Assembly: GCA_034411995.1 (NCBI GenBank)
Contig: DAOUME010000022.1
Span: forward strand, 3,965-67,964
Source: Anaerolineae bacterium
Lineage (GTDB): Bacteria > Chloroflexota > Anaerolineae > UBA7937 > B3-Chlor
DNA: 64,000 bases
Reading direction: 5' to 3'
A program made the translations under genes and the position numbers. Below, piece after piece: positions 22,384 through 44,030 of this stretch (position 1 is the first letter of the stretch; each line of letters begins with the position of its first letter). The notes beneath the pieces are model-generated. The model saw only the letters and a program-made list of their open reading frames with translations. It made no database searches and was not told where the DNA came from.

Positions 22384-23502
22384 TCAGACAGGCCCCTGGT
22401 CGGCCACTTCCAGCAGGACCTCCAGCACCCTCCCTGCCGTCACCCCCCAATCGAAGGCCCGCAACCGGTCACGGCCCCGCCGCACCAGTTCGGAGCGTAG
22501 TGCTCGATCCATGATAACCCGCAACGTGGCCTGGGCTATCCCCTCCACGTCCAGGGGGTCGACCAGCAGCGCCGCCTCCCCCGCCACCTCGGCCAGGGCG
22601 GAAGTGTCCGAGGTCACCACGGGCACGCCGTACGCGGCGGCCTCCAGGATGGGGAAACCGAAGCCCTCGTACAGCGAGGGGAAGAGGAAAGCCTCGGCCC
22701 CGGCGAAGAGGCCGGCCTTCTCCCGGCCCACGTATCCGGTGAGCACCACGTCCACGCCGTGTGGTGAGGCGTTGATCAAGCGCGCCACCTCCTCGAACCC
22801 CACGCCGGGCGTGCCCCCCAGCACCAGTTGATGCGGCAGGCCGCGCTCTTTGAGCCTCAGGAAGGCCTGCACGATGCGCGCCACGTTCTTCTTCGTCTCC
22901 AACCGCCCCAGGAAGAGGAGGTACGGCGGGGTGATCTCGTACCGCTCCAACGTGGCGGCCACCTGGTCAGGTGTCGGCAGCTCCGCCTCGGTGACGGTCA
23001 ACCCGGAGAGGACGGCTTCGATGCGCGCCGGGTCAACACCGTAGATGCGCACCAGGTCGTCCTTCGTGGCCTGGGAGACAGCGATGATCTTCGCCGCCGT
23101 GCGCAGGGCGAAGCGGGTGGTGAGCTCCAGGTACCAGCGCGCCAGCGGCGAGTAACACTCCGGGAAGTAGTGAAAGGCCACGTCGTGGATGGTGGTCACG
23201 CAGCGCGGCGGACGCAGGAAGGGGATGACGTTGGCCGGAGCGAAGAACACGTCGGGCTTCAGCCGTCGCAGCTCCGTGGCCATCCGAGTCTGCGCCCACA
23301 GGGTGCGTCGCGGTATCTCGAGAGGGACGAAGTTGGAGGGCAGGTCCCCGAACTCCTCCGGCACCCTGTCGTTCAACAAGAGGGTGTACTGGTTGGTGGA
23401 GTCCAGCCGCGCCAGAGCCAGGATCAGGTGTAGCGTGTAGAACTCCGTGCCGGTCCGGCGTTTCTTGGCCGCCGGGGAAGCGTCGATGGCGATCCTCTTC
23501 AC
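22384..23502 (-). CDS. Family 4 (GT-B) glycosyltransferase
   Basis: C-terminal Glycos_transf_1 pattern (AFLFPSLYEGFGFPILEAAAYGVPVVTSD). The ORF was trimmed to the GTG at 23502 (RBS GGAGGG); the 114-aa Arg/Gly-rich N-terminal extension in the six-frame track looks spurious. Its GTG start overlaps the stop of the upstream methyltransferase (GTGA). Confidence 0.75.
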   Translation of the reverse strand: MKRIAIDASPAAKKRRTGTEFYTLHLILALARLDSTNQYTLLLNDRVPEEFGDLPSNFVPLEIPRRTLWAQTRMATELRRLKPDVFFAPANVIPFLRPPRCVTTIHDVAFHYFPECYSPLARWYLELTTRFALRTAAKIIAVSQATKDDLVRIYGVDPARIEAVLSGLTVTEAELPTPDQVAATLERYEITPPYLLFLGRLETKKNVARIVQAFLRLKERGLPHQLVLGGTPGVGFEEVARLINASPHGVDVVLTGYVGREKAGLFAGAEAFLFPSLYEGFGFPILEAAAYGVPVVTSDTSALAEVAGEAALLVDPLDVEGIAQATLRVIMDRALRSELVRRGRDRLRAFDWGVTAGRVLEVLLEVADQGPV

Positions 23503-24539
23503 CCTACGCCCTCCACCGGTTTCCGGGCCACGGCGGTGAGCCCGTACTCGACGAAGAGCAGCCCAGCCAGGTTGGCCCCCTGCGAACGGAGCATCCTCCG
23601 TGCCCACGCTCCCTTCCACATCCGTCTGGTGAGGGCGAAGAGCGAAGACTTCACCCTCCCCCCCTCTGGGGCTCCCTCCTCCCCGTCCAGCATGGCGCGC
23701 AGCGCCCCGGGGAGGTAGTAGCGGGGATTCAGCCCTGCGGCCCCGAAGGCCTGGCGGTAGTCGAGGATGGTATAGGCGTGCTCGTTGATGCCCGCCTCCG
23801 TCTCCTCGTTGTCCACGCGTTTGTCCTTGAGGATCCTGTAGCACGGCTCACTGGTCAGCGCCAGCCTCCCTCCCTCTCTCAGCACGCCAGCGCACTGTAT
23901 CACCACCTGACCCAGCATCGGGCTATGGTGGATGCTGGCCACGGAGAGCACCAGGTCGAAGGTCTCAGGACGAAAGGGCAGCTTCTCCATGCTGGCCAGG
24001 ACCCGCTCGAAGGGAGGGGTCCCCTGCCGCAGGTACACCTCCCCCGTCTCCAACCCTCCTGCCCGTCTGTCCCTCACCACGTCCAGGGCCACCACCTGGC
24101 ACCCCGCCCGCGCCAGAAAAGCGCTGGCCCAGCACCGTCCAGCCCCCAGCTCCAGCACCCGCTCTCCACCGCGCAGGTCCAGCAGTTCCATCAGGCCGAA
24201 GAAGTTGTCGCCCTGCCTCTTCCAGTGGGCTACGCTCTGGAGGTTGGAGGTGACGCCCTGGTGCACGCGGGGCAGGGACAGGATCCACTCCTCCCTCATC
24301 TCCTCGGCGCCGCCCTGAAGGAACCTCTCCCAGCCGGCCCGCTCCCGAAGGACCGCCTCGGGCGGGTGCGGAAGGAGGTCCAGGACACCGTGGCTGAGGG
24401 CGTAGCGAGCGCCGCAGGCCCCACACTCCAGCCAGCCCTCGGTGAGAACGTCTGGCTGTGCGCTGCGCAGGGCTTCCAGGTGCCAGTGGCCTTCCCCGCA
24501 GGCCGGGCAAACCAGCCAATCCAGTAGCTCCTCTCTCAT
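23499..24539 (-). CDS. Trm112-like zinc-ribbon domain fused to class I SAM-dependent methyltransferase
   Basis: N-terminal LDWLVCPACGEGH...CGACGARY (Trm112/DUF343-like double CxxC), then VLELGAGRCWASAFLARAG methyltransferase motif I. Confidence 0.7.
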   Translation of the reverse strand: MREELLDWLVCPACGEGHWHLEALRSAQPDVLTEGWLECGACGARYALSHGVLDLLPHPPEAVLRERAGWERFLQGGAEEMREEWILSLPRVHQGVTSNLQSVAHWKRQGDNFFGLMELLDLRGGERVLELGAGRCWASAFLARAGCQVVALDVVRDRRAGGLETGEVYLRQGTPPFERVLASMEKLPFRPETFDLVLSVASIHHSPMLGQVVIQCAGVLREGGRLALTSEPCYRILKDKRVDNEETEAGINEHAYTILDYRQAFGAAGLNPRYYLPGALRAMLDGEEGAPEGGRVKSSLFALTRRMWKGAWARRMLRSQGANLAGLLFVEYGLTAVARKPVEGVG

Positions 24540-24626
24540 GGTCAGCCTATCATATCAGCGCTATGGGGCAGAGTCAAGGCAAGGACGTTGGGGCGAGGCG
24601 GCCTTGCCCCCCTTCTTTGCCTCGTC

Positions 24627-24648
24627 GCCGCACGGCATGCCGTGCGGC
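24627..24648. repeat. Perfect 22-nt palindrome GCCGCACGGCATGCCGTGCGGC
   Basis: Shares the CACGGCATGCCGTG core with the palindrome at 27315..27342. Confidence 0.7.
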
Positions 24649-24710
24649 TACACCCAACGCGCGCGCTGCACACATCCTCCCACCTGCGAATCCCTTGCCC
24701 CCCGCAATCC

Positions 24711-25053: not shown

Positions 25054-25299
25054 GTGAGCACGGAAGAAGACCTCATCCCCGAGGAAGCCATCGGGGGTGG
25101 TGGCGCGGCACGCGCCCCATCCCGGCCTCCCTGTGGCTCCGTGGTTCACCATTTCTACTCAAGCACACCGTTCGGCAGCGATGAACGAAGCGTTGGACTT
25201 CTCTGTGACGCCATAGGCCCCGGCTTCGGGGCGTTCGACGCCGTCCTGACCGGCTACTGCTACCCCTCACGGAGATCGCCAGCGAGGTGGTTACGGTGA
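25054..25299 (+). CDS. Small hypothetical protein (81 aa, acidic N-terminus, Gly run, 4 Cys), translationally coupled to the downstream membrane protein
   Basis: GTG start 6 nt after GGAGGAA; sequence MSTEEDLIPEEAIGGGG...CGSVVHHFYSS...LLCDAIGPGFGAFDAVLTGYCY; its stop TGA overlaps the GTG start of the next gene (GTGA). Coding status unproven. Confidence 0.3.
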   Translation: MSTEEDLIPEEAIGGGGAARAPSRPPCGSVVHHFYSSTPFGSDERSVGLLCDAIGPGFGAFDAVLTGYCYPSRRSPARWLR

Positions 25300-27134
25300 A
25301 GAAGAACCTGTGCGGAATAGCCAAGCTCCTGATTCTGCTCGTCGCGCTGGCTCTAGTCATGCCGGCGCGAAACCCTGTGGAAGCCCAGGAAGGAGGGCAA
25401 ACGGTAACCCTCGAGCTGATCCCCGTGGGTATCGAAGGGGAGGTCGGCGGGTCGATATCCTTCCGTCTCCCCCCAGGCTACGAACCGTGGGGGTCCTATC
25501 CCCACGAATCCAGGTGGGGGCCGGCCACGGCTATCTGGACCGACTACGATTACCACGGCACACGAGTGGTCCAGACCGTGACCTTCCCCGATGGTGCCCA
25601 GGACCGACGTACAGGCGATGAGATCGACGGCGTCGGCTTTGGCGGCGGCGTGCTCTATGTCAGAGGGTATGCGGACATTCACACCGAGGCGGAGGAGTCC
25701 CAGAGGCCGTACGTGGCGGGGGTGATCTACGAGGAAGGGGCCACTACCGTAGCTGGGGATGGAGTGGCGTACGATGCGTACTACTACCTCTCCTCACGGA
25801 CCGAAGAGGAGCAAGGGGACTATGAGTGGGTTTACGGCTACCACAATCTGGCGCTCAGGATAGCGCTCTCCGACACTGAGCCCCTTTACACCCTCTGGCT
25901 TCACTTCTGGACCTGGGGGCCTGCCGACTTCACCGACAGCCAGGGTACGGATTATACTTTCACGCTGGACGGCAACCCGGCGATGGACGCCCACCACGAA
26001 TACCTGAAGGCCATGCTCTCCAGCGTCACCATCACCGGCTGGAAGGCGCCACCGGCTGTCGCACCGCCAGAGACGGAGCTCACCGGCAGCGACTGGCTGG
26101 ATACGATCCCCCTGCCCACGGAAATCTCCACCGAGCCCAAGGTGGTGGGCACGAACCTGGGACTGGCTCTCTTCTTCGCCCTGGCCTTCGGGCTCACTTC
26201 GGAGCTCTTCAACGCCACCCTGAAGGAGAACGAAGAGCTCCTCCACGCCCGGCTGGCACCAGTGCTGGCGCCTCTCCGGCGTGGAAAGAAGCGGCTGCCG
26301 CGCCTGGAGGGAGGGCGGTGGACCCGTTTCGCCAAAGCGATGCTCATGCTCCTCCTCTCAGCCCTCCTCTACGCCTTTCTCGACCCTGGATTCGGCCTCA
26401 GCCCCAGCGGGGCCATCGTCTTCCTTTCCCTCTTCGTCGCCCTGCTGGTGGTGGTCTACTCGTACGACGGGTGCCAGGCCCTGCTGGGAGCCAGGTTCTA
26501 CGAGCTGAGGTCCCGCTTTCAACTCTTCCCCATCGCCCTGGCTTTTGGTCTGGCTTGCGTGCTGGTCACGCGAGGTATGGACTTCCACCCTGGCTATCTC
26601 TACGGCTTCGTGGCTGGCCTGGGTCTGCTGGGTCTGGAGGCGGAGACACCACGCCGCCAGGCGCTTCTGGTGCTGGGGGGCGTCGGGGCGCTCCTGGCCG
26701 CCACCCTGGTGGCCTGGGGGTTGGCCGTGCCGGTGGCTGGGCTGGCCGAGGGTGGCCTGCCTGGCGCCTCGGTTCTCTACGGCGTGCTGGTGGCCATCTT
26801 CGTCGCCGGGCTGGAGGGCCTCCTCTTTTCCCTGGTGCCGCTGGCTTTCATGGACGGATCCAAGGTCATGGCCTGGAGCCGGGTCGTCTGGGCGGTGACC
26901 TTCGGCCTGGCAGCCTGGCTGTTCTTCCACGTGCTCATCAACCCCGGCAGCGCTTATCTGGAGGCACTGAGCAGCAAGAAGGTCCTGTTGATGGTGGGGA
27001 CGTTGGCCGCCTACGGTGCCCTGACCGCCGGCACCTGGCTCTGCTTCCGGTGGTATGGGCCAGAAAGCGAGCCAGGACAGGCCGGGCCAGCTATGGAGAC
27101 CATGCAAAGAAAAGGCCGAGCCGGCCGCCGCTGA
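25296..27134 (+). CDS. Large membrane protein: signal peptide plus about 270-aa extracytoplasmic domain followed by about 8 TM helices (unknown function)
   Basis: VKKNLCGIAKLLILLVALALVMPA signal-like N-terminus (GTG at 25296, RBS GAGGTGG); the C-terminal half is highly hydrophobic with multiple helices. Confidence 0.6.
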   Translation: MKKNLCGIAKLLILLVALALVMPARNPVEAQEGGQTVTLELIPVGIEGEVGGSISFRLPPGYEPWGSYPHESRWGPATAIWTDYDYHGTRVVQTVTFPDGAQDRRTGDEIDGVGFGGGVLYVRGYADIHTEAEESQRPYVAGVIYEEGATTVAGDGVAYDAYYYLSSRTEEEQGDYEWVYGYHNLALRIALSDTEPLYTLWLHFWTWGPADFTDSQGTDYTFTLDGNPAMDAHHEYLKAMLSSVTITGWKAPPAVAPPETELTGSDWLDTIPLPTEISTEPKVVGTNLGLALFFALAFGLTSELFNATLKENEELLHARLAPVLAPLRRGKKRLPRLEGGRWTRFAKAMLMLLLSALLYAFLDPGFGLSPSGAIVFLSLFVALLVVVYSYDGCQALLGARFYELRSRFQLFPIALAFGLACVLVTRGMDFHPGYLYGFVAGLGLLGLEAETPRRQALLVLGGVGALLAATLVAWGLAVPVAGLAEGGLPGASVLYGVLVAIFVAGLEGLLFSLVPLAFMDGSKVMAWSRVVWAVTFGLAAWLFFHVLINPGSAYLEALSSKKVLLMVGTLAAYGALTAGTWLCFRWYGPESEPGQAGPAMETMQRKGRAGRR

Positions 27135-27280: not shown

Positions 27281-27314
27281 GCACCCCACACCCCGCAGCG
27301 ATGCCACCGCCCTG

Positions 27315-27342
27315 TAGGGGCACGGCATGCCGTGCCCCTACC
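27315..27342. repeat. Perfect 28-nt palindrome GTAGGGGCACGGCATGCCGTGCCCCTAC (REP-like; possible terminator of the membrane-protein gene)
   Basis: Exact palindrome downstream of the 25296..27134 gene; same arms as the elements at 44048 and 17811 and the same core as 24627. Confidence 0.7.
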
Positions 27343-27514
27343 AAGGCGTACACCCCACCTGTTTTTCTGAGCGCAGCGAAGAATCTCAGGCACAGATTCT
27401 TTGCTTCGACTGGGCTCAGGGCAAGCTCTGGTTCGCGCCTCAGGACGACAGGGGGACCGGGCCCCGAGGGCGGGTGATCCACCAAGTCTTGCCGCGCGGG
27501 CCTCGCCCCGCGCT

Positions 27515-27532
27515 GGGCAAGCCAGCTTGCCC
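27515..27532. repeat. Palindrome GGGCAAGC-CA-GCTTGCCC upstream of the RM gene
   Basis: Perfect 8-bp arms; about 110 nt upstream of the RM gene start. Confidence 0.5.
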
Positions 27533-27646
27533 TCGCTGGCCAGTTGTGCTACTATTGATTGACTTCGCCCCTACTTCGAGAACCGCTCGACAGACGCCTC
27601 GCCCCGGCAATGACCCGGGTCTGCCCACGCGCCAGAGGAGGAAAGC

Positions 27647-30600
27647 TTGGTGGCTCAAGAGGATCGCCCACAGGCAACCGCCCCGCCGGAGAGCCGTCGG
27701 GAGATCGAGGGTCTCGTCCAGCGCTTCGCCCGCAACCGCGACGTGTACACCCGCCCCGACTACAAAGAGACCCAGGTCCGCGTGGAGTTCATCGACCCCT
27801 TCTTCGAGGCCCTGGGCTGGGACGTGCGCAACGTCAAAGGGTACGCGGAACAGTACAAGGACGTGGTCCACGAGGACGCCATCAAGATCAGCGGGGCCAC
27901 CAAGGCCCCCGACTACTGCTTCCGCGTGGGCGGGGTGAGGAGGTTCTTCCTGGAGGCCAAGAAGCCCTCCACCGCGGTCAAGGGTGAGGTAGGCCCGGCC
28001 TACCAACTGCGCCGCTACGCCTGGAGCGCCAGGCTGCCCCTCAGTCTGCTCACCGACTTCGAGGAGCTCGCCGTCTACGACTGCCGCCAGCGGCCCCGGC
28101 CCACCGACAAGGCTGGCGTGGGCCGGGTGATGTATTACACCTTCGACCAGTACCTGGAGCGCCTGGACGAGATCTACTCCATCTTCGCCCGGGAATCGGT
28201 CCTCAAAGGCTCCTTCGACCGGTACGTGGAGGACACCAAACGCCAGCGCGGCACCAGCGAGGTGGACGTGGAGTTCCTCAAGGAGATCGAGGGCTGGCGC
28301 GACGAGCTGGCCCGCAACCTGGCCCTGAGGAACCCCCAGCTCTCCGTCCACGAGCTGAACTTCGCCGTGCAGCGCACCATCGACCGCATCATCTTCCTGA
28401 GGATGTGCGAGGACCGGGGCATCGAGAGGTATGGCGGCCTGCTGGGCCTGACCGCCGGTCCCCACGTCTACGACCGTCTGGGGGAGCTGTACCGCGAGGC
28501 CGATCAGAAGTACGACTCCGACCTCTTCGACTTCCAGGCGGACAGACTGACCAGGTCCCTCTCCCTCGACGACAAGACCCTCAAGCCCATCCTCTCCGGC
28601 CTGTACTACCCCGACTGCCCCTACGAGTTCTCCGTGCTCCCCCCGGAGATCCTGGGCCAGGTGTACGAGCAGTTCCTGGGCAAGGTCATCCGCCTCACCG
28701 CGGGCCACCGGGCCAAGGTGGAGGAGAAGCCGGAGGTGAAGAAGGCGGGCGGCGTGTACTACACCCCCTCCTACATCGTGGAGTACATCGTCCAGCAAAC
28801 GGTGGGTCGCCTCATCGAAGGCAAGACGCCCCAGCAGATCTCCAAGCTGCACATCCTGGACCCCGCCTGCGGCTCCGGATCGTTCCTGCTGGGCGCTTAC
28901 CAGCACCTGCTGGACTACCACCGGCGCTGGTACGAAGAGCACGACCCGGAGAAGTACGCCACGGCCAAGCGCCCCGCCCTGTACCAGGGCCGCGGGGGCG
29001 AGTGGCGGCTGACCACGGGGGAGAAGAAGCGCATCCTGCTCAACAACATCTACGGCGTGGACATCGACCGCCAGGCGGTGGAGGTGACCAAGCTGAGCCT
29101 GCTGCTCCAGGTGCTGGAGGGAGAGAGCCAGGAGACGTTGGGCCAGCAGTTGAAGCTGTGGCGGGAGAGGGCCCTGCCCGACCTGGGGGAGAACATCAAG
29201 TGTGGCAACTCCTTGATCGGCCCGGACTACTTTGAGGGGCAGTTGCTGCCCGACGAGGAGGAGATGCGCCGGGTGAACCCCTTCGACTGGGAGAAGGAGT
29301 TCCTCCAGATTATGAAGGCGGGCGGCTTTGACGCGGTCATCGGGAACCCGCCCTACATCCGCATCCAGAGGATCGAGCATAGCGTGGCGGACTACCTCTT
29401 CCGCTCCTATCGGGCTCCGACAAGCAAGACCGACCTCTCTCTGGTGTTTCTTGAGCGCGCTCTGGCCCTAGCAACGGACAGCGGACTTGTCGGCTTCATA
29501 TGCACGTCTCAGTGGCTGTCGACAGACTACGGGCGGAACATGCGGGCCATGCTGTCCGATGGGCGACTTCACCAAGTGGTCGACTTCGGCTCCCTGCCAG
29601 TCTTCCAGAAAGCCAATACATACCCTGCGATCCTGATCCTGAGCCCGACCCGATGCGACGCCCTTGCGCTTAAGCGGATCCGGCGAGGTGAACAGCTGAA
29701 CCTGCCGGGCATCCAAGCTACCGATCCGGTCTTGATCGATCTGGATGGACTATCGGACGACCCATGGAACCTTGGGCGTTTGGATATACCAACGCTGCTC
29801 GGCGAGCGCGGGCTCGAATGGAGACCGCTCAGCGCGTACGCGAACGCGTACATCGGAGTCCTGACCGGCATGGACAGGGCCTTCGTCGTCGAGACGAGGG
29901 CTGCCAAGCAACTCCAGTTGGAGACGGACCTGCTCTTGCCGTACGCGTACCGAGGGGCCGAAGTCCAGCGATATGCTCAGGTGGAGCCTGGGGCCCTGGT
30001 GATTTACCCGTACCGTGAAGGGCCAGGGGGCGCGCCGAGGCTCATCCCCGAACCAGAACTGAGGCGGCACTACCCGAATATCCACCAGCATCTCGTGGCT
30101 CACAAGGATGCTCTGCGTGAGCGAAGAGATAGCCGGAGATTCTACGCGAAGGGGCCAGACTGGTATCGTCACCTGCGCGCGGGCTCCTTCGACTACATTC
30201 ATGCCCGCAAGCTCCTCGTCAAGGGTATTGAGACCCGTACGGTCGTAGGCCTGTTGGACGCGGGGACAGCATTCAATGGCGCGAACTGTCCGGGCGTAAT
30301 CGTCGAAGAGCCACAACAACTCTCGCCTCTCTACATCCTGGGGATCCTCAATTCCGGCGTCATGTCGTATCACCTTCGGATGATCTGCCCGGCGAAGCTA
30401 GGCGGCTACACTAGATTCAATGCTCGCGGCATCAACAGTGCACCCATCCGCACCCTCAGTCGCACAGACCGGGCCGAGGAAGCCCGACACGACAAGATGA
30501 TCGCGCTGGTGGAGCGGATGTTGGACCTGCATGAGAAGCTGGCCGCGGCCACCATCCCCGCCGACAAGAAACTCTACCAGCGTCAGATCGAGGCCACAGA

Positions 30601-30679
30601 TGAGGAGATAGACGCGCTGGTGTATGAGTTGTATGGGTTGACCGAGGAGGAGATCGCTATCGTGGAGGGTCGGGCGTGA
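27647..30679 (+). CDS. Type IIG restriction-modification enzyme (single-chain endonuclease + N6-adenine methyltransferase + TRD; MmeI/Eco57I-like)
   Basis: 1010 aa; N-terminal PD-(D/E)xK-like region (APDYCFRVGG...FFLEAKKP), FxGxG-like SAM motif (ILDPACGSGSFLLGAY), NPPY motif (VIGNPPYIRIQ), and C-terminal methyltransferase-type tail DALVYELYGLTEEEIAIVEGRA. GTG start 9 nt after GAGGAGG. Confidence 0.8.
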   Translation: MVAQEDRPQATAPPESRREIEGLVQRFARNRDVYTRPDYKETQVRVEFIDPFFEALGWDVRNVKGYAEQYKDVVHEDAIKISGATKAPDYCFRVGGVRRFFLEAKKPSTAVKGEVGPAYQLRRYAWSARLPLSLLTDFEELAVYDCRQRPRPTDKAGVGRVMYYTFDQYLERLDEIYSIFARESVLKGSFDRYVEDTKRQRGTSEVDVEFLKEIEGWRDELARNLALRNPQLSVHELNFAVQRTIDRIIFLRMCEDRGIERYGGLLGLTAGPHVYDRLGELYREADQKYDSDLFDFQADRLTRSLSLDDKTLKPILSGLYYPDCPYEFSVLPPEILGQVYEQFLGKVIRLTAGHRAKVEEKPEVKKAGGVYYTPSYIVEYIVQQTVGRLIEGKTPQQISKLHILDPACGSGSFLLGAYQHLLDYHRRWYEEHDPEKYATAKRPALYQGRGGEWRLTTGEKKRILLNNIYGVDIDRQAVEVTKLSLLLQVLEGESQETLGQQLKLWRERALPDLGENIKCGNSLIGPDYFEGQLLPDEEEMRRVNPFDWEKEFLQIMKAGGFDAVIGNPPYIRIQRIEHSVADYLFRSYRAPTSKTDLSLVFLERALALATDSGLVGFICTSQWLSTDYGRNMRAMLSDGRLHQVVDFGSLPVFQKANTYPAILILSPTRCDALALKRIRRGEQLNLPGIQATDPVLIDLDGLSDDPWNLGRLDIPTLLGERGLEWRPLSAYANAYIGVLTGMDRAFVVETRAAKQLQLETDLLLPYAYRGAEVQRYAQVEPGALVIYPYREGPGGAPRLIPEPELRRHYPNIHQHLVAHKDALRERRDSRRFYAKGPDWYRHLRAGSFDYIHARKLLVKGIETRTVVGLLDAGTAFNGANCPGVIVEEPQQLSPLYILGILNSGVMSYHLRMICPAKLGGYTRFNARGINSAPIRTLSRTDRAEEARHDKMIALVERMLDLHEKLAAATIPADKKLYQRQIEATDEEIDALVYELYGLTEEEIAIVEGRA
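30548..30679 (+). repeat. Master copy (3-prime end of the RM gene) of a 35-130 bp direct repeat found five more times downstream
   Basis: GCCACCATCCCCGCCGACAAG...GAGGAGATCGCTATCGTGGAGGGTCGGGCGTGA; see partial copies at 31680, 33545, 34771, 37506 and 43994. Confidence 0.85.
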
Positions 30680-30789
30680 GCGGACGGCGCAGCTGGTCGA
30701 GCCGCACATCCGCTGGTAGGCGCGATGGCCCCGAATCTCGCAATCAGGGCAACCCAATGGGCAGCTAGGTTCGACAGCCGGCCGCGGCC

Positions 30790-31656
30790 GTGCGGATATT
30801 GGCTGGGCCGGGAGCGCGGAGAGTTGGAGTGACCGCAGTTGTAGGCGTAAGTTTCCTCTCGGAAGTCATAATGATCGCAGATACTAGGGTGTCCTGGCCA
30901 GGCGCCCCACGGCCACCAGCAGATATGTTGCGGAAGCTGTACCCGGTCTTTTCGCCGCGAACTCCACAAAAGGCAGCTGTGCTGGGTTTCTCCGGCACAA
31001 TATCGGCGGCCAAAACAGTAATGATACACCTCGTGAAGGACAAGCTTCGCAACTACAATCGGCCCCTGATAATGGTCAATCTGAAAGACCATTTGAAGTG
31101 CTGGATAGAAGAAGTGACGGTGACCTGCCTGAGTCCGAGGAGCAGAACCGGCCTCACCTTCATGCTCTGCGGGCTTGAACCCTCCCGCACTGCTGCTGCA
31201 AGAAAGGGAAACGCGCTCGTGAGGTATAGACAGATCTTGGAAACCCACATATACGTCTTCAGTGTGAGCCAGAGCACCGGCAGAGTAGACGTGGTGAAGA
31301 AAGGCCTCTTCGCCGTCATTGGCTCGGGTGCAACACTCGAGCGAGAGCTGAAACGGAAGATTCCGCCAATGATCAGGTTCGGATTCAACCAGCCGAATCT
31401 GCATTGGGCACGAGCTCGCTTGGTGGGCGAAGTAGCGCGAGGAGTTTTTGACAGCGGCGGCGCAACCACAGTTGGCGGACCGTTTCAAGTGTTCCGCATC
31501 ACAGCAGAAGGCTTGGTCACCGAGTACATCTGGCCGGCAAGTATACAACCAAGAGACGTCAGCGTACGACAAGAAGGCCAAAAGACCATAATACAGAATC
31601 GAGACCTCAACCAGACTTACACGCTCCATCCCATATGGGACCTGCCATTGCAGTAG
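30790..31656 (+). CDS. Hypothetical protein, weak resemblance to Ntn-hydrolase / HslV-proteasome-like fold (cassette A)
   Basis: Segments AVLGFSGTISAAKTVMIHLVKDKL and LFAVIGSGATLERELKRK resemble HslV/proteasome-beta motifs (IAGFAGGTADAF.., AIGSGG..). The start is uncertain (GTG 30790 or ATG 30874). Lower GC than surrounding sequence. Confidence 0.4.
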   Translation: MRILAGPGARRVGVTAVVGVSFLSEVIMIADTRVSWPGAPRPPADMLRKLYPVFSPRTPQKAAVLGFSGTISAAKTVMIHLVKDKLRNYNRPLIMVNLKDHLKCWIEEVTVTCLSPRSRTGLTFMLCGLEPSRTAAARKGNALVRYRQILETHIYVFSVSQSTGRVDVVKKGLFAVIGSGATLERELKRKIPPMIRFGFNQPNLHWARARLVGEVARGVFDSGGATTVGGPFQVFRITAEGLVTEYIWPASIQPRDVSVRQEGQKTIIQNRDLNQTYTLHPIWDLPLQ

Positions 31657-31679
31657 TGGGCGAACCAGCAAGTGGCGCC

Positions 31680-31811
31680 GCCACCATCCCCGCTGACAAG
31701 AAGCTCTGCCAGCGCCAGATGGAGGCCACCGATGAGCAAATCGACGCGCTGGTGTACAAATTGTATGGGGTGACGGAGGAAGAGATCGCTATCGCGGAGG
31801 GCCGGGGTTGA
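31680..31811 (+). repeat. Direct repeat copy 2 of the RM-gene 3-prime end (about 130 bp, about 88% identical), ends in TGA
   Basis: GCCACCATCCCCGCTGACAAGAAGCTCTGCCAGCGCCAGATGGAGGCCACCGATGAGCAAATCGACGCGCTGGTGTACAAATTGTATGGGGTGACGGAGGAAGAGATCGCTATCGCGGAGGGCCGGGGTTGA. Translated in frame it reproduces ATIPADKK...ALVYKLYGVTEEEIAIAEGRG*. Confidence 0.85.
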
Positions 31812-31851: not shown

Positions 31852-33510
31852 TTGCGGCATGACCAGACCGGCCTCCTCTCGCAGAGCGCAAGGCCGGGCA
31901 ATGCAGCGACCGGGGGCATCAGGGGAAATACATTGACAACCATCTCGCAGGGTGAACTGAACAACCTGAGCGTGCTCATCGTGGAAGATGCGCGGCAGGC
32001 TCTGGAGATGCTACTACGGTATCAGCAGAAGTACCGCGACGACATCAATTTCGCCGCGAACAAAGGAGGTTTGCTGATTGACATTGGTAGTCGTCTCGGC
32101 GACACCGGTGTTGTACGGCAGGGCATGGCGTCGATTGATGAGTTGCTGCCGAGGGCTGGTGAGCAATCTCGTCCCCTTCTCCTCTACAATCTAGGCAACG
32201 GGTATATGGCGTTGCACTCCATTGCTCGGCGCCAACCTGGCTTCTCATTCGACCCCGATGACACTAGACTCCGTGAAGCCAAGCGCTGTTACCGCGGCGT
32301 GCTGGGAGGATCAGAGCGTCTTGATGCCAACCAACGCGCTGGACTCCGAGTGAACTATGGCAACTGTCTCGCGAGTCTTGGCCGTTCCCTCGAGGCAATC
32401 CACCAATACGAGACGGCTCTCCGCCACGCGCCCAATCACCCCATGGCATGGGGGAACCTGGGAGTTGAGTTGGAGCGCTTCGCGTTCGTTGGTCAAGACC
32501 CGGCCATCCTGCGGGCTGCGAATGAAGGGCTACTCAGGGCTCTTGCAGATGATAGCCTTGAGCAAATGGGAGAGGATTCGGCGCGCCCCGGTTTCGAAAA
32601 GGCGCAGCAACGTATTGCACGGCTGTTGAGCCAGCTTGTAGAAGACGCGGGACTGGGCGGGCCCGAGGTGCCCCAGGCCGCGACACCGTATCATCAAGCG
32701 TACAGCGAGTTCTGTGTGAAGCATGAACTCTTCCTGAATTTCTGTCTGAAGGGCCGCCCATGCCAGCGGGTGGCTGAAGATGCTGTCAGTTTGTCAATTA
32801 CCACGCCACTTGATGACGAGACGACCTACCCTCGGCTCGCACGAGTGGTCAACGAGATCAAAGAACGATACGCGGTCGCCCGCCTACTGCTGTTCGAAGC
32901 CTGCAATCCGCCTCTTGACACTCAGCCATATGACGAGATGACCTACTACGCGGACAATCTCGACTACGCCGTATACGGGATTGGTCCCACCAAGCTGAAG
33001 CTGGCCTTTGAAAGTGCCTACAACATCTTGGACAAGCTGGCCTTCTTCGTCAACGACTATCTCGATCTGGGGATCAAGGTGCGGCTGGTGAGTTTTCAGG
33101 GGCTATGGAAGGAGCGCAAGACGGCCGCTCTCAGGCCTGCGATTGTCGAACGTGGTAATTGGCACCTGTATGGCCTGTACGACCTCTCCAAAGACCTAGC
33201 ACCGACAGGCTACCTTGAGCACCTGCGGCTCACCCGAGACTATCTAACACACCGCTATCTGGTGCTCCATGTTGAGGGGCTAGATTGGCTAACGTCCGCC
33301 GATGGTCCTGGGTACCACTCGGGCTACCGCCAGTTGCTGACCAACACGATCGAATTGATGCGACTCGTCCGCAGTGCGGTCATCTACCTCATCGCCTTCA
33401 TCGACCGAGAGGAGCGCGCGAAACGCCAAGACGGAGAGGGCTCTATTGCACCCATGCGTGTCCCGCCTTATAGGCCTTACCGGTTGGGTCCGCAGGATGC
33501 TCCAATGTAG
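31852..33510 (+). CDS. TPR-repeat protein with C-terminal HEPN-like domain (candidate defence/abortive-infection effector; cassette B)
   Basis: TPR-like helical repeats in the N-terminal half (LLYNLGNGYMALH..., YETALRHAPNHPMAWGNLG). C-terminal region with Rx4H motif (LRLTRDYLTHRYLVLH) in a context resembling LA2681/Abi-type HEPN domains. Confidence 0.5.
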   Translation: MRHDQTGLLSQSARPGNAATGGIRGNTLTTISQGELNNLSVLIVEDARQALEMLLRYQQKYRDDINFAANKGGLLIDIGSRLGDTGVVRQGMASIDELLPRAGEQSRPLLLYNLGNGYMALHSIARRQPGFSFDPDDTRLREAKRCYRGVLGGSERLDANQRAGLRVNYGNCLASLGRSLEAIHQYETALRHAPNHPMAWGNLGVELERFAFVGQDPAILRAANEGLLRALADDSLEQMGEDSARPGFEKAQQRIARLLSQLVEDAGLGGPEVPQAATPYHQAYSEFCVKHELFLNFCLKGRPCQRVAEDAVSLSITTPLDDETTYPRLARVVNEIKERYAVARLLLFEACNPPLDTQPYDEMTYYADNLDYAVYGIGPTKLKLAFESAYNILDKLAFFVNDYLDLGIKVRLVSFQGLWKERKTAALRPAIVERGNWHLYGLYDLSKDLAPTGYLEHLRLTRDYLTHRYLVLHVEGLDWLTSADGPGYHSGYRQLLTNTIELMRLVRSAVIYLIAFIDREERAKRQDGEGSIAPMRVPPYRPYRLGPQDAPM

Positions 33511-33544
33511 TCCCCAGGTGCCGCGTGCAGAACTCTAGTTCGGG

Positions 33545-33598
33545 GTGCTAGTGTATGAGTTATATGGGTTGACCGAGGAGGAGATCGCGATTGTCTGA
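33545..33598 (+). repeat. Direct repeat copy 3 of the RM-gene 3-prime end (about 55 bp), ends in TGA
   Basis: GCTAGTGTATGAGTTATATGGGTTGACCGAGGAGGAGATCGCGATTGTCTGA. Confidence 0.8.
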
Positions 33599-33631
33599 AG
33601 GGCTTCCTCAGCGCAGAGAGTAGGCTGTAGC

Positions 33632-34135
33632 ATGATTCAGCCTTGGAGCGACCCCATACCGTACGACCTATCCCGCACGCTGCGTCGGGCAAGTGTCCCG
33701 CCGGGGTTCAGCAGTAGTGTGCCGCAGACTCCGGGTACGTACGTGATCTATTGCACCGCTCAACCAGACCTATGTGAAGCTATCATTGATATCGGAGAAG
33801 CTGGCCCGCGCGCCAAAGCGAGACCAAAGGGCCTCCGAGGGAGGCTGGCAACTACAGTTGCCCACACGGCCTCTGAAAGGATGGCCGCTGACGTACAGGC
33901 CGGCAAACTCCCGAACAGACTCCGTGTAGTTTGGATCGAGAGGCCGTCCAAAGAGGACGCCAAGGAGTTACAGGACGCACTTATCAGCCTCTTCCGAACG
34001 GATTGCGGACGCCAGCCGCGACACAACAAGAGACTGGAGCAGCACCCAAAGCCTGAGGCCTTCCTGGCGATTTGCGCCGCCCTGAAGAGGCACATTGGCG
34101 GCCTATTGCGCCACCCGACGGCCCGCTGCGGGTGA
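33632..34135 (+). CDS. Hypothetical protein with GIY-YIG-like nuclease motif (cassette C)
   Basis: PGTYVIYCTAQ...AIIDIGEAG...R..E spacing resembles GIY-(10-11)-YIG with downstream Arg/Glu; weak and unverified. Confidence 0.35.
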   Translation: MIQPWSDPIPYDLSRTLRRASVPPGFSSSVPQTPGTYVIYCTAQPDLCEAIIDIGEAGPRAKARPKGLRGRLATTVAHTASERMAADVQAGKLPNRLRVVWIERPSKEDAKELQDALISLFRTDCGRQPRHNKRLEQHPKPEAFLAICAALKRHIGGLLRHPTARCG

Positions 34136-34691: not shown

Positions 34692-34770
34692 TCGACCAAG
34701 TGTGTTTGGTTTTGGTGTACAGTGTGCACTGACGCACAGCTGCTTCGGCCCAACAATGGCTTGACCCCAT

Positions 34771-34848
34771 GGGGAGATCGACACGTTGGTGTATCACTTG
34801 TATGGGTTGACGGAGGGAGAGATCGCTATCGTGGAGGGGCGATCGCTG
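34771..34848 (+). repeat. Direct repeat copy 4 of the RM-gene 3-prime end (about 78 bp), ends in TGA
   Basis: GGGGAGATCGACACGTTGGTGTATCACTTGTATGGGTTGACGGAGGGAGAGATCGCTATCGTGGAGGGGCGATCGCTGA. Confidence 0.85.
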
Positions 34849-35029: not shown

Positions 35030-36085
35030 ATGAGCAAAGAAATCCTAGTGAGAATGGACATACCAATCCCCGCTCACAAAATCGTCAATACACCTGCCAT
35101 GGTTTTCAGCAGGTGGATGCCTCTGGACGAGGATGAGTCTATTGTAGTCCAAGAGGAAAACGCCACCCTGAGGTTATGGTTCGACAGAAGTTGCTGGCAT
35201 AACGTGACTCACGCGGGAGGAGACATACCTAATCACGTGAATGTTCTCGTAGACAAGGTATTCGCAGATGTAACGCTCCGCGACTTGTCTGAGGGTTTAG
35301 TAGACTACATTGAACTCACAGCCACTGAACCTCACCCTCCAGAGAGCCCCTACCAGCAAGAGTACCGGGAGCTAGGACAGAAAGTGTACCTTCTAACTCT
35401 CACCTACCTGAACAGATTGATTAACTACGCACGAAGCATGAAGGGGCAATACTGGCTACAAGAATACCCCCTTAGCGAAGCTGAGGGCCTGTCTACTGTC
35501 AACCTGGCTTTCAAAGCCCGTGTCCTAATCGACTCTGAATGGGTTAGGTGGTTCCCGGATGTCAGGCAGCTAGTTATCGGCAGGGTGGGAGGCTGTCAAG
35601 ACAGAGAGCGTTTCATAGACAAGGACTCCTGGTCACAGGTCAGGAGCTTCATCACATCAAAGCAACGGGCCTCACTTGTCCGGGAACTCCTCGCCGGGGC
35701 AGAGTGGCTCGCTGGAATTGGGCACCGCAGAAGTGCATTGACAGAAGCAATAACAGCACTTGAAGCCGCAATCACCACATTCTCAAACCAGCCCAAAGCA
35801 GAGGAAGCTTTCGGCTCTCTTATTACGGAGAGAATGAACGTGAGCTCACTGAGCAATTGGACTGAAAAGATGGGTTTGTCGGGCACCATTCACTACCTCT
35901 TCCCACTGGTATTCTCTGAAGAGATGATGCCCACCGACATTCTGACAGATTGTCAGGAGGCGATACTAGAGCGCCAGAATGTGGTGCACAACGCTCAGCG
36001 AGATGTTCAGGAAGATAAGCTGTCAGTGTACCTGGAGGCAATTCGCAATATGTGTCGCCTGCTCGAAACTTACCAGCAAACTTAG
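35030..36085 (+). CDS. Hypothetical protein, 351 aa, markedly lower GC (cassette D)
   Basis: AT-richer codon usage than the flanking DNA. No recognisable domain; a C-terminal Rx4H (ERQNVVH) could be an HEPN-like motif or chance. Confidence 0.45.
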   Translation: MSKEILVRMDIPIPAHKIVNTPAMVFSRWMPLDEDESIVVQEENATLRLWFDRSCWHNVTHAGGDIPNHVNVLVDKVFADVTLRDLSEGLVDYIELTATEPHPPESPYQQEYRELGQKVYLLTLTYLNRLINYARSMKGQYWLQEYPLSEAEGLSTVNLAFKARVLIDSEWVRWFPDVRQLVIGRVGGCQDRERFIDKDSWSQVRSFITSKQRASLVRELLAGAEWLAGIGHRRSALTEAITALEAAITTFSNQPKAEEAFGSLITERMNVSSLSNWTEKMGLSGTIHYLFPLVFSEEMMPTDILTDCQEAILERQNVVHNAQRDVQEDKLSVYLEAIRNMCRLLETYQQT

Positions 36086-36734: not shown

Positions 36735-37478
36735 ATGAGCATTCGTTTACTCGATTGCGCGCCGATGGCTCCCCGGTACCCACGGTGGCACCTGGGGACT
36801 CCCTGTCTGCTCGTCGACACCGACCAGGGCCTCGTTCTCGTCGATACCGGCCTCGGCCTGCACGACTTTCTGGCCCCAGGGCCCCTGGTCCGCCTCTTCG
36901 CGTGGGCTTTGCGCTTCCCTCACGATCCCGAGCACGCCGCCGTGCGCCAGCTCTCGCGCCTGGGCCACGACCCCGAATCTGTCCGGCACATCGTGATGAC
37001 CCACCTCCATTTCGACCACGCCGGGGGCCTTCCCGACTTCCCCCACGCTCAGGTTCACGTACACCGCCGCGAGTACGAGGCCATGCTCCATCCTCGCAGT
37101 CTGCTAGAGCTGGGCTACGATGGCCTCGATTTCGCCCATGGGCCCTCCTGGGTTCTCTACGACCAACCCACCGAGGACTGGCTCGGGTTCGAGGCTTTCC
37201 GGCTGCCCTTCACGCCGGAGATGTATCTCGTCCCACTCTTCGGCCACACCCGCGGCCATTGCGGGGTAGCCATCCAGGACGATGATGGTTGGGTCTTGCA
37301 GTGTGCCGACGCCCTGCCCACGAATGCTGACTTCGACCTCACCCCGCCATGGCTCAACCGTTTGGTGATCGGACCGCACGTTGCCAGGTTGCGGGAGTGG
37401 GCTTGCCGCCATCCCGAAGTTCGCCTGTTGGCCGGGCACATGCGGCACCCTTTCCCCGATCACAAGGGCGAAGTCTGA
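36735..37478 (+). CDS. MBL-fold metallo-hydrolase
   Basis: HxHxDH motif (MTHLHFDHAGG) and downstream His/Asp ligands (GHTRGH). Confidence 0.8.
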   Translation: MSIRLLDCAPMAPRYPRWHLGTPCLLVDTDQGLVLVDTGLGLHDFLAPGPLVRLFAWALRFPHDPEHAAVRQLSRLGHDPESVRHIVMTHLHFDHAGGLPDFPHAQVHVHRREYEAMLHPRSLLELGYDGLDFAHGPSWVLYDQPTEDWLGFEAFRLPFTPEMYLVPLFGHTRGHCGVAIQDDDGWVLQCADALPTNADFDLTPPWLNRLVIGPHVARLREWACRHPEVRLLAGHMRHPFPDHKGEV

Positions 37479-37505
37479 GAGTCCCCGGCCGAAGCGGACC
37501 CGACT

Positions 37506-37544
37506 GGAGAAGAGATCGCTATCGTCGAGGGCCGGAATTGCTGA
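37506..37544 (+). repeat. Direct repeat copy 5 of the RM-gene 3-prime end (about 39 bp), ends in TGA
   Basis: GGAGAAGAGATCGCTATCGTCGAGGGCCGGAATTGCTGA. Confidence 0.8.
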
Positions 37545-43993: not shown

Positions 43994-44030
43994 CTGGAGA
44001 GATCGCTACGGTGGAGGGGCGGGACCGCTG
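43994..44030 (+). repeat. Direct repeat copy 6 of the RM-gene 3-prime end (about 37 bp), ends in TGA
   Basis: GGAGAGATCGCTACGGTGGAGGGGCGGGACCGCTGA. Confidence 0.75.

Follow-up and report, generated by a model that had tools for sequence, protein, structure and literature searches.

The LA2681-like HEPN family (PF18733) was described by Anantharaman, Makarova, Burroughs, Koonin & Aravind (2013, Biol Direct 8:15, PMC3710099), whose Table 1 lists the conserved Rx4-6H motif as 'Yes' for LA2681 and gives fusion to TPR as the typical architecture. Homologues on plasmids carry the NCBI name 'LA2681 family HEPN domain-containing protein', and the literature that we searched contained no experiment on any LA2681-family protein. 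Several other HEPN systems invite comparison. PrrC and RloC are HEPN RNases with a large regulatory domain that are encoded within restriction-modification (RM) loci and step in once restriction fails (PMC3710099). ApeA is a single-protein HEPN abortive-infection system that cleaves tRNA anticodon loops, is often found in RM neighbourhoods and is switched on by a ligand bound away from the catalytic site (bioRxiv 10.64898/2026.01.26.701840). DARNA, or PD-T7-3, joins a tRNA-cleaving HEPN domain and a helical-repeat domain in one protein (bioRxiv 10.64898/2026.02.22.705581). HEC-08 and DS-11 are further validated one-protein HEPN systems.

Here we describe a TPR–HEPN gene encoded in 64,000 nucleotides of the genome of an Anaerolineae bacterium (GenBank assembly GCA_034411995.1, contig DAOUME010000022.1), the whole of which we refer to as the window; LepA likewise places the source among uncultured Anaerolineae. 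Its product is a member of the LA2681 family, and the TPR–HEPN(LA2681) fusion is a known architecture, noted in 2013. It matches the full family profile, retains the conserved Rx4H and shows no structural difference from the family; the RM association that we find, with homologues embedded in five RM classes, is however unlisted in PMC3710099. As in PrrC and RloC, a HEPN RNase is fused to a large regulatory domain and occurs in RM loci, but PrrC and RloC use an ABC ATPase for regulation where the window protein has TPR, and shared membership of the HEPN superfamily is the full extent of their sequence relationship. ApeA resembles it as a one-gene HEPN system of RM neighbourhoods, yet belongs to another HEPN family (the window protein has no PADLOC match), has no TPR and responds to a deoxydinucleotide, whereas the TPR domain of the window protein points to a ligand that is a protein or peptide. 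DARNA differs in its reversed domain order, with HEPN at the N terminus and a Pds5/HEAT-like helical domain that senses ssDNA, and has no detectable sequence homology to the window protein. HepT toxins of the HepT–MntA type, in contrast, are small stand-alone HEPN proteins without TPR, controlled by an adjacent MNT nucleotidyltransferase.

A TPR–HEPN protein of the LA2681 family

The gene and its parts are as follows.

31921..31926, plus strand: SD-like AGGGGA, 6 nt before TTG 31933, as read from the sequence
31933..33510, plus strand: most likely extent of the TPR–HEPN(LA2681) gene, 525 aa, TTG start, where homologue N termini align
31948..32640, plus strand: N-terminal TPR-like α-solenoid, residues ~6–236, 12–13 helices
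32686..33423, plus strand: C-terminal HEPN domain, a conserved N-terminal extension plus four core helices
33235..33252, plus strand: Rx4H catalytic motif R435-D-Y-L-T-H440, invariant in 201/201 family members

An uninterrupted open reading frame spans 31852–33510 of the plus strand, and would encode 552 aa if its most upstream TTG were used, as a preliminary description of this DNA had assumed. The open frame stands but that length does not: the real gene most likely starts 27 codons further downstream, at TTG 31933, because a database copy with 100% identity (P0001, 525 aa) and about 60 homologues of about 525 aa all begin at the equivalent position, and the SD-like hexamer lies immediately before it. 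The coding features of this frame, like the repeats of the array in which it lies, are far beyond chance.

The C-terminal region had been likened to LA2681/Abi-type HEPN domains, with a profile search proposed as the check. That search returns Pfam PF18733 (HEPN_LA2681) with an E-value of 4.4e-46 and 157.2 bits (cut-off 27), over profile positions 3–204 of 204 (nt 32815–33411), placing the window protein in the HEPN superfamily and in this family specifically; all 69 homologues carry the same domain. An N-terminal extension (residues 252–297) with an invariant C261 precedes the core helices at residues 298–324, 350–376, 429–439 and 465–496. The segment singled out earlier as bearing an Rx4H motif, RLTRDYLTHRYLVLH (33226–33270), does contain the true one, R435-DYLT-H440, and both R435 and H440 are invariant in 69/69 homologues as well as in all 201 family members that cover those columns. 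Conservation extends to D367 in helix 2 (201/201), N307 (196/198) and R317 (198/199). Other resources are silent on this protein: an NCBIfam search gave no meaningful match, the HEPN-domain profile matched no PDB sequence even at E 10, and PADLOC-DB v2, whose models include ApeA, PD-T7-3/DARNA, PD-T4-2, AbiD/F/J/U2/V and PrrC, returned 0 families at E ≤ 10. The LA2681 family is thus not one of the systems that had been validated or predicted by 2023, and we found no solved structure for it.

The full-length AlphaFold model is confident (pLDDT 90.9, pTM 0.91) and shows a rigid two-domain body, in which a ~230-residue TPR solenoid packs onto a four-helix HEPN domain. The N-terminal half qualifies as TPR by repeat profile or fold, in agreement with the repeats first noticed there, and the predicted four-helix topology is the one that had been anticipated. 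Rx4H lies where helix 3 ends, which fits the published description of HEPN domains (PMC3710099). Modelled alone, the HEPN domain is of moderate quality (pLDDT 75). The best structural matches are HepT-type toxins of HEPN–MNT modules. By analogy with other HEPN proteins, we predict a HEPN dimer with a composite, metal-independent endoRNase site.

Family distribution and genomic neighbourhoods

The family comprises 1,772 representatives among 1.84 billion, distributed patchily across phyla. Its architecture is fixed: 156 of 203 family sequences span the full-length profile, most of the others being short and probably fragments, and the best 150 of the 1,772 representatives are mostly 500–550 aa long with the HEPN domain at about residues 250–520. 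Members are carried on 26 plasmid records (from Alteromonas, Vibrio, Rhodococcus, Agrobacterium and others) and on one phage-labelled contig.

The gene in the window is intact and under purifying selection, with dN/dS ~0.2 against its orthologues in two related loci (L016 and L013), and non-synonymous change in the TPR half is ~2.4 times that in the HEPN half. It is also a compositionally foreign cassette acquired just downstream of a type IIG RM gene: its GC3 is 0.66 versus 0.85 for lepA, the RM gene and ADH, and its dS is 0.85–1.29 versus 0.22 for the flanking metallo-β-lactamase-fold (MBL) gene in the same genome pairs.

We searched for related loci with a profile built from 32 closer homologues, and examined about 22 homologous contexts for neighbours and partner genes. 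The family sits beside or inside RM systems of five different classes, and it recurs in conflict islands. The HEPN gene directly follows a type IIG RM gene after a 24-nt gap (L016) or lies in the same type IIG RM-anchored array (L013–15); elsewhere it is found inside a type I RM operon, beside an AbiU2 HEPN gene (L017), flanked by a DUF1156 methylase gene on one side and a DUF499 ATPase gene on the other (L020 and L137), and directly after a type III-like helicase–DUF4391–MTase–Res system (L139), a kind of system that is also nearby on a Vibrio IncC plasmid. Further plasmid neighbours are AbiEii, RHS toxin/immunity, DUF4365 and ATPase/helicase genes. In about one-third of contexts (L004, L007–L010, L022, L023 and L029), the neighbours are only housekeeping or unannotated genes.

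No partner or antitoxin gene is conserved across the ~22 loci, which fits a one-gene system; a DEAD/DEAH helicase of ~1,100 aa adjoins the HEPN gene in two alphaproteobacterial plasmids only. There is no MNT nucleotidyltransferase gene in the window or in the ~22 homologous loci, and no neighbouring TPR gene in the window.

The RM-anchored cassette array

The cassette array is the more interesting part of this locus, more so than the TPR–HEPN gene itself. Its elements in the window are listed below.

27647..30679, plus strand: type IIG RM enzyme (fused REase–MTase–TRD), array anchor, from Pfam and PADLOC
30544..30679, plus strand: repeat copy 1, 3′ end of the RM ORF itself (...DALVYELYGLTEEEIAIVEGRA, then stop)
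31676..31811, plus strand: repeat copy 2, a 136-nt relic of an RM 3′ end, left border of the HEPN cassette
33531..33603, plus strand: repeat copy 3, core 33546–33594, right border of the HEPN cassette
34713..34848, plus strand: repeat copy 4, closing the cassette with 167-aa and 148-aa ORFs
37502..37540, plus strand: repeat copy 5 (short), following the MBL gene, nhmmer E 2.7e-4

The preliminary description spoke of an insertion hotspot next to an RM system, and the type IIG RM gene, copies of whose 3′ end delimit the cassettes, gives that hotspot a concrete form. The gene is full length and host-like in GC3 (0.85); its product has the Pfam domains HSDR_N, N6_Mtase, Eco57I, MmeI_Mtase and TaqI_C, and matches REase_MTase_IIG in PADLOC with an E-value of 2.5e-226 over positions 5–1003 of 1011. 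Its last ~70–136 nt are repeated, imperfectly, after each downstream cassette, the array repeats ranging from 27 to 136 nt in length and from 70 to 97% in identity. Copy 2 is 86% identical to copy 1 and keeps its frame and stop, and copy 3 begins 21 nt past the HEPN stop. A repeat copy occupies that same position in both related loci with an orthologue (L016 and L013), and L013 also has one at the same position after the MBL gene.

The same layout recurs in 68 of 107 metagenome contigs with the shared repeat. In these arrays, a fixed anchor gene is followed by cassettes that share one orientation and mostly hold a single ORF. The cassettes carry an extremely wide variety of genes, defence genes among them; the TPR–HEPN gene is absent from the 107 related arrays at the same locus. 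In the window, another cassette separates the TPR–HEPN gene from the RM gene. For cassette A, the gene caller chose a minus-strand product of 348 aa, the plus-strand product of 288 aa looking more protein-like; neither has a Pfam, PADLOC or PDB match.

The closest parallel in layout is that of integron arrays with phage-defence genes (bioRxiv 10.1101/2024.07.02.601719), in which co-oriented cassettes are each followed by the same repeat. In the window, however, the repeat is a coding 3′-end relic of the type IIG RM gene and not an attC-like hairpin, and the head of the array is that RM gene in place of intI. We rejected the idea that the repeats act as attC-like hairpins, as they fold no better than shuffled sequence (z-scores −1.0 to +1.5), and the idea that they are the C termini of the cassette genes, as in 119 of 124 cassettes the ORF has already stopped before the repeat begins. 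No integrase was seen among the annotated neighbours in the window. The RM-linked 'insertion with long target duplication' of Furuta, Abe & Kobayashi (2010, PMC2853133) may be grouped with the window array as a similar layout.

A tentative reading, which we regard as possible but doubtful, is that the TPR–HEPN gene is a mobile unit of an undescribed, integrase-free gene-capture platform that uses the RM 3′ end as its recombination site. Each captured cassette would then bring or leave a copy of that site, building up arrays of as many as six or more cassettes in one orientation. Among related Anaerolineae, these arrays would turn over rapidly, and they would stockpile defence effectors (OLD-family nucleases, TIR proteins and the HEPN RNase) backing the anchor RM enzyme. 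If so, the HEPN cassette would serve an 'RM-anchored defence library' as a dedicated effector of the second line, beyond chance residence in an island. The array is in any case a concrete and abundant example of possible defence-gene capture or exchange beside a restriction gene without an integron integrase, and such a mechanism could help to explain 'defence islands' and 'embedded genes'.

Proposed function and rival explanations

We consider it reasonably probable that the TPR–HEPN protein is a self-contained, TPR-regulated abortive-infection RNase, that is, a one-gene defence effector. The suggestion of a defence role, already made from the sequence, gains strength from the five RM classes, plasmid carriage, foreign codon composition and cassette-array context, and we still word it as a candidate role. 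In an uninfected cell, the TPR domain would hold the RNase site, formed by dimerization of two HEPN domains, in an off state, or would keep the protein in an inactive assembly. Upon infection, a specific ligand, likeliest a phage protein or peptide and possibly an anti-restriction factor, would bind in the TPR groove and switch on the RNase, which would cleave host RNA and arrest translation before the phage cycle is completed. The likeliest RNA target, by analogy with PrrC, ApeA and DARNA, would be tRNA anticodon loops, and the protein may back up the neighbouring restriction enzyme as a second defence line. We infer dimerization, active-site geometry, TPR role, trigger and RNA target alike by analogy.

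The LA2681 TPR–HEPN proteins make up a compact one-gene family of ~1,800 representative clusters across phyla and plasmids. Invariant catalytic residues, purifying selection with a faster TPR half and association with five RM classes give good grounds for proposing the protein as a candidate member of an expanding class, that of the ligand-gated, one-protein HEPN tRNases represented by ApeA and DARNA, with the TPR domain as a putative and directly testable sensor.

A narrower version of the defence reading supposes that the protein is functionally coupled to the RM enzyme: the TPR domain would bind the neighbouring RM enzyme and keep the HEPN domain silent until phage anti-restriction proteins release the RNase, as in the PrrC/EcoprrI precedent summarized in PMC3710099. 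At least five independent settings do place the family beside or inside RM systems, and gaps of 0–24 nt to the RM or methylase gene in L016, L020 and L137 suggest co-transcription. RM linkage is nevertheless frequent and not obligatory as for PrrC, many loci and plasmids carrying the HEPN gene without any RM gene, and the partners are unrelated (type IIG, type I, type III-like and DUF1156/DUF499), which makes one conserved TPR–RM interface unlikely. Given also the intervening cassette in the window and the 107 related arrays without the HEPN gene, we judge such a guardian rather unlikely here, and PrrC-like coupling unlikely to be general across the family. An addiction toxin, stabilizing the cassette, array or plasmid and restrained by an unrecognized protein or RNA antitoxin or by intramolecular TPR control, would accord with the HepT-type structural matches, with plasmid carriage and with residence in a high-turnover array; this, too, seems unlikely, as no small gene or MNT nucleotidyltransferase is conserved next to the gene in the ~22 contexts and a large conserved TPR domain is atypical of toxin–antitoxin toxins.

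Two further explanations set defence aside. That the protein is a housekeeping or regulatory RNase, processing RNA or degrading mRNA under stress in an incidental RM neighbourhood, is suggested by the third of homologous loci lying among metabolic or housekeeping genes and by the RNA-processing enzymes found among HEPN families, Las1 and the KEN domain for example (PMC3710099). We find it improbable in view of the patchy distribution across phyla, the foreign GC3, plasmid occurrence, a dS far above that of the flanking genes and absence from the 107 related arrays at the locus. HEPN domains may also be non-catalytic, as in sacsin and KNTase C-terminal domains, and the gene could accordingly encode a nucleotide- or ligand-binding or scaffolding module, or be a decaying cassette gene. 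This is highly improbable for a family in which 201 sequences show no exception at R435, H440 or D367, and for an ORF that is intact, full length and evolving with dN/dS ~0.2.

The TPR–HEPN protein and its family

The preliminary description had placed a 552-aa protein with TPR-like repeats and a HEPN domain at 31852–33510 (+). This open reading frame (ORF) is real and uninterrupted; its length had been counted from the most upstream start. A length of about 525 aa is shared by some 60 homologues and by a database entry of identical sequence (P0001); the product of the TTG codon at 31933 starts in line with their N-termini, and AGGGGA lies 6 nt 5' of that codon. We therefore place the HEPN gene at 31933–33510 and number residues along the 525-aa product. 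The peptide previously highlighted for its Rx4H motif, RLTRDYLTHRYLVLH, is found at 33226–33270, and the actual motif within it is R435-D-Y-L-T-H440.

The C-terminal half is a HEPN domain of LA2681 type, as had been suspected, matching the Pfam entry HEPN_LA2681 (PF18733) at profile positions 3–204 of 204 (E = 4.4e-46, 157 bits; gathering score, 27). The TPR-like repeats of the N-terminal half are confirmed through the homologues: Pfam TPR models match one unit of the window protein, below threshold, but many homologues pass the TPR thresholds, and a profile built from 69 homologues has matches to TPR structures, both consensus-TPR and OGT. In the full-length predicted model (mean pLDDT 90.9, pTM 0.91), residues 239–243 form a short disordered linker, which is followed by a conserved extension with an invariant C261 and the motif LFLNFCL, and then by four long helices (residues 298–324, 350–376, 429–439 and 465–496), with extra elements between helices 2 and 3 and a small β-hairpin between helices 3 and 4. 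R435 sits within the third helix and H440 directly after it, and the acidic residue of the HEPN description by Anantharaman et al. (PMC3710099) corresponds to D367.

R435 and H440 are invariant in all 69 homologues from a word-index search. An exhaustive HMMER search among 1.84 billion sequences with the HEPN-domain profile returned 1,772 representatives at E ≤ 1e-3, of which 454 reached E ≤ 1e-30. When the best 150 of the 1,772 were combined with the 69 (n = 203), both residues were kept in 201 of the 201 sequences covering those columns, as was D367 (201/201), with N307 in 196 of 198 and R317 in 198 of 199. Most of the best 150 are 500–550 aa long and carry the HEPN domain near residues 250–520; the two-domain profile is covered in full by 156 of the 203 sequences, most others being short and probably fragments. 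The family is thus small, widely scattered and fixed in architecture. Plasmid homologues are labelled 'LA2681 family HEPN domain-containing protein' by NCBI, PADLOC holds no model for the family, our literature search found no published experiment on it, and no solved or experimentally tested relative was found.

Relative to its orthologues in two related loci with similar arrays (L016 and L013), the HEPN gene has a dN/dS of about 0.2, with about 2.4 times more non-synonymous change in the TPR half than in the HEPN half (dN 0.254 versus 0.106). Its GC3 is 0.66, against 0.85 for lepA, the type IIG restriction-modification (RM) gene and ADH of the window, and between the window and L013 its dS is 1.29 (65% amino-acid identity) against 0.22 (92%) for the flanking metallo-β-lactamase-fold (MBL) gene. 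The low dN/dS, the GC3 shift and the contrast with the MBL gene show that the HEPN gene is functional and was horizontally acquired or exchanged, without co-divergence with its genome. The LepA of the host is 85% identical to sequences from Anaerolineae (Chloroflexota) MAGs, which places the host among the uncultured bacteria of that class.

An array of cassettes anchored at the RM gene

The HEPN gene had been assigned to a 'cassette B' in an insertion hotspot beside an RM system. Both parts of that assignment are correct: the RM gene is present, and copies of its 3' end bracket the HEPN cassette. The RM product terminates in ...DALVYELYGLTEEEIAIVEGRA before the stop codon, and the last 27–136 nt of the gene recur downstream as imperfect copies in the same orientation, enclosing four segments.

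Features of the RM-anchored array in the window
27647–30679 (+), RM gene; PADLOC REase_MTase_IIG, E = 2.5e-226
30544–30679 (+), repeat, the RM gene 3' end itself
30680–31675, segment 1, cassette A
31676–31811 (+), repeat copy; frame and stop codon of the RM end retained
31933–33510 (+), HEPN gene, in segment 2 (HEPN cassette)
33531–33603 (+), repeat copy
33632–34135 (+), 167-aa ORF, in segment 3 with a 148-aa ORF
34713–34848 (+), repeat copy
35030–36085 (+), 351-aa low-GC ORF, segment 4
36735–37478 (+), MBL gene, segment 4
37502–37540 (+), repeat copy
43996–44021, possible further repeat copy

In L016 and L013, as in the window, a repeat copy lies within about 20–40 nt 3' of the HEPN gene; the other cassettes differ among the three. 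Scanning metagenome contigs with an exact pattern of the repeat core yielded 107 contigs, 68 of which carry 2–6 copies, never in mixed orientation. The median inter-repeat segment (n = 138) is 1,215 nt long, and in 121 of 130 the longest ORF runs in the direction of the repeat. Because this ORF stops short of the next repeat in 119 of 124 cases, the repeats are intergenic relics, and the possibility that they are the C-termini of cassette genes is ruled out. The 124 cassette products represent 74 families, among them OLD-family ATPase-TOPRIM nucleases (4; Old E = 7.6e-74), TIR (3) and DUF5677 (4) proteins, a nucleoside hydrolase, DUF4268, RM and helicase genes, and ordinary-looking enzymes. 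On contigs with an RM homologue, this gene has the orientation of the array, whose first repeat usually contains its end. The ADH gene of the window recurs on 12 contigs at 80–88% identity, so many of the contigs represent the same chromosomal locus in related populations. An LA2681 homologue occurs on 0 of the 107, making the HEPN cassette a rare member of a large cassette pool.

This array is more unusual than the HEPN protein itself, and we found no published description of an RM-anchored array of repeats and cassettes. Its closest analogues are those integron cassette arrays that carry defence genes and, from the accessible part of Furuta et al. 2010 (PMC2853133), the RM-linked 'insertion with long target duplication'. 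The array repeats do not form attC-like hairpins, and no integrase is found among the annotated neighbours in the window. The array may also be simply the outcome of homologous recombination that acted repeatedly on a conserved gene end.

Several cassettes merit a separate remark. Cassette A holds two long overlapping ORFs, neither with a Pfam, PADLOC or PDB match or a homologue in related loci: the public gene call (minus strand, 348 aa, rich in Cys, Trp and His) enters the antisense of the RM 3' end, and the plus-strand product (30790–31656, 288 aa) is more protein-like in appearance. The 167-aa protein is about 70% identical in five contig arrays (L061, L077, L087, L110 and L119), and L110 also has the 148-aa neighbour at 83% identity; the two ORFs may form a two-gene cassette. 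The 351-aa ORF has the lowest GC of the region (0.51; GC3 0.58), with no Pfam or PADLOC match and no homologue in any fetched locus. The MBL gene is 92% identical in L013 and another related locus, L014, is host-like in GC3 (0.78) and shows, in precomputed Pfam data, a weak Anti-Pycsar_Apyc1 (PF23023) match beside Lactamase_B.

Genomic neighbourhoods and proposed function

Across about 22 loci surveyed, RM systems of five different kinds adjoin or enclose LA2681 family genes, an addition to the 2013 table of Anantharaman et al., which lists none for LA2681.

RM systems beside LA2681 family genes
Type IIG enzyme: window lineage; 24-nt gap to the LA2681 gene in L016
Type I operon: L017; AbiU2 HEPN upstream and HsdR downstream of the LA2681 gene
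DUF1156 methylase / DUF499 ATPase: separate contigs L020 (6777–11590) and L137 (3987–8653); LA2681 gene in between
Helicase-DUF4391-MTase-Res system: L139; LA2681 gene directly after
Helicase-DUF4391-MTase-Res kind of system: Vibrio IncC plasmid; one IS element from the LA2681 gene

In L020 and L137 the stop codon of the DUF1156 methylase overlaps the LA2681 gene start and the DUF499 ATPase lies downstream, an order that looks like conserved embedding in an RM-like system. Other plasmid copies adjoin AbiEii, RHS toxin/immunity pairs, WYL, DUF4365, and large ATPases and helicases; transposases surround two chromosomal copies, and in about a third of the loci the neighbours are housekeeping or unannotated. 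On two alphaproteobacterial plasmids, of Roseovarius and Agrobacterium (L026:7720–11019 and L028:2583–5879), homologous DEAD/DEAH helicase-family genes of about 1,100 aa (33% identity over 1,000 aa) directly adjoin the LA2681 gene, a pair that may be a two-gene variant. As no neighbouring gene is conserved across the loci, the window protein is most aptly described as a self-contained single-gene module.

What is established is an intact TPR–HEPN(LA2681) protein that keeps every family-invariant residue, evolves under purifying selection and is encoded in a cassette gained behind an RM gene. The earlier proposal of a defence effector is supported, in the form of a candidate defence RNase. The HEPN domains would act as a dimeric, metal-independent endoRNase and the TPR solenoid, by analogy with ApeA and DARNA, as sensor and auto-inhibitor; since TPR grooves typically bind peptides or proteins, the trigger would probably be a phage protein. 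We lean towards this reading. A sensor role agrees with the faster evolution of the TPR half, although weaker constraint is in any case usual for repeat domains. Defence systems made of a single HEPN protein have been validated, namely ApeA, DARNA/PD-T7-3, HEC-08 and DS-11; in the accessible text of the preprints on ApeA (bioRxiv 10.64898/2026.01.26.701840) and DARNA (10.64898/2026.02.22.705581), both stay off until a ligand binds outside the catalytic domain; they then cut tRNAs in the anticodon loop, leading to abortive infection.

A PrrC-like guardian dependent on the RM enzyme is improbable, given that the RM partners are diverse and some loci are RM-free, and an addiction toxin is slightly more doubtful again, with no antitoxin gene conserved beside it. 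We give still less credence to a housekeeping RNase, and a HEPN domain devoid of catalysis seems very unlikely. A defence RNase with a sensing TPR half remains our preferred reading, and the HEPN gene is a solid but unsurprising candidate for one. The family and its architecture were both already catalogued; added here are the strictly invariant catalytic set, a confident two-domain model, the repeated RM embedding and the cassette status of the gene, which owes most of its interest to its testability and to the surrounding array.

Other features around the RM gene

In sequence comparisons between the window and L013/L014, the RM gene looks more homogenised at either end than in the middle. 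Conservation is far higher in the DNA of its 5' end (27327–27938) than elsewhere in the gene: an out-of-frame ORF there reaches 87% amino-acid identity, whereas the RM protein as a whole has 67%. Its 3' end is about 88–91% identical in DNA. Upstream, a 615-aa ORF with no family match (25287–27134) is flanked by two copies (24619–24652 and 27309–27341) of a GC-rich palindrome with the core GCACGGCATGCCGTGC, possibly REP-like elements or the hairpins of terminators. Shortly before the RM region, at 22384–23844 (−) and 23499–24539 (−), there is a glycosyltransferase that matches PF20706 'GT4 in conflict systems' (E = 1.1e-11); a SAM-methyltransferase ORF lies next to it or overlaps with it.
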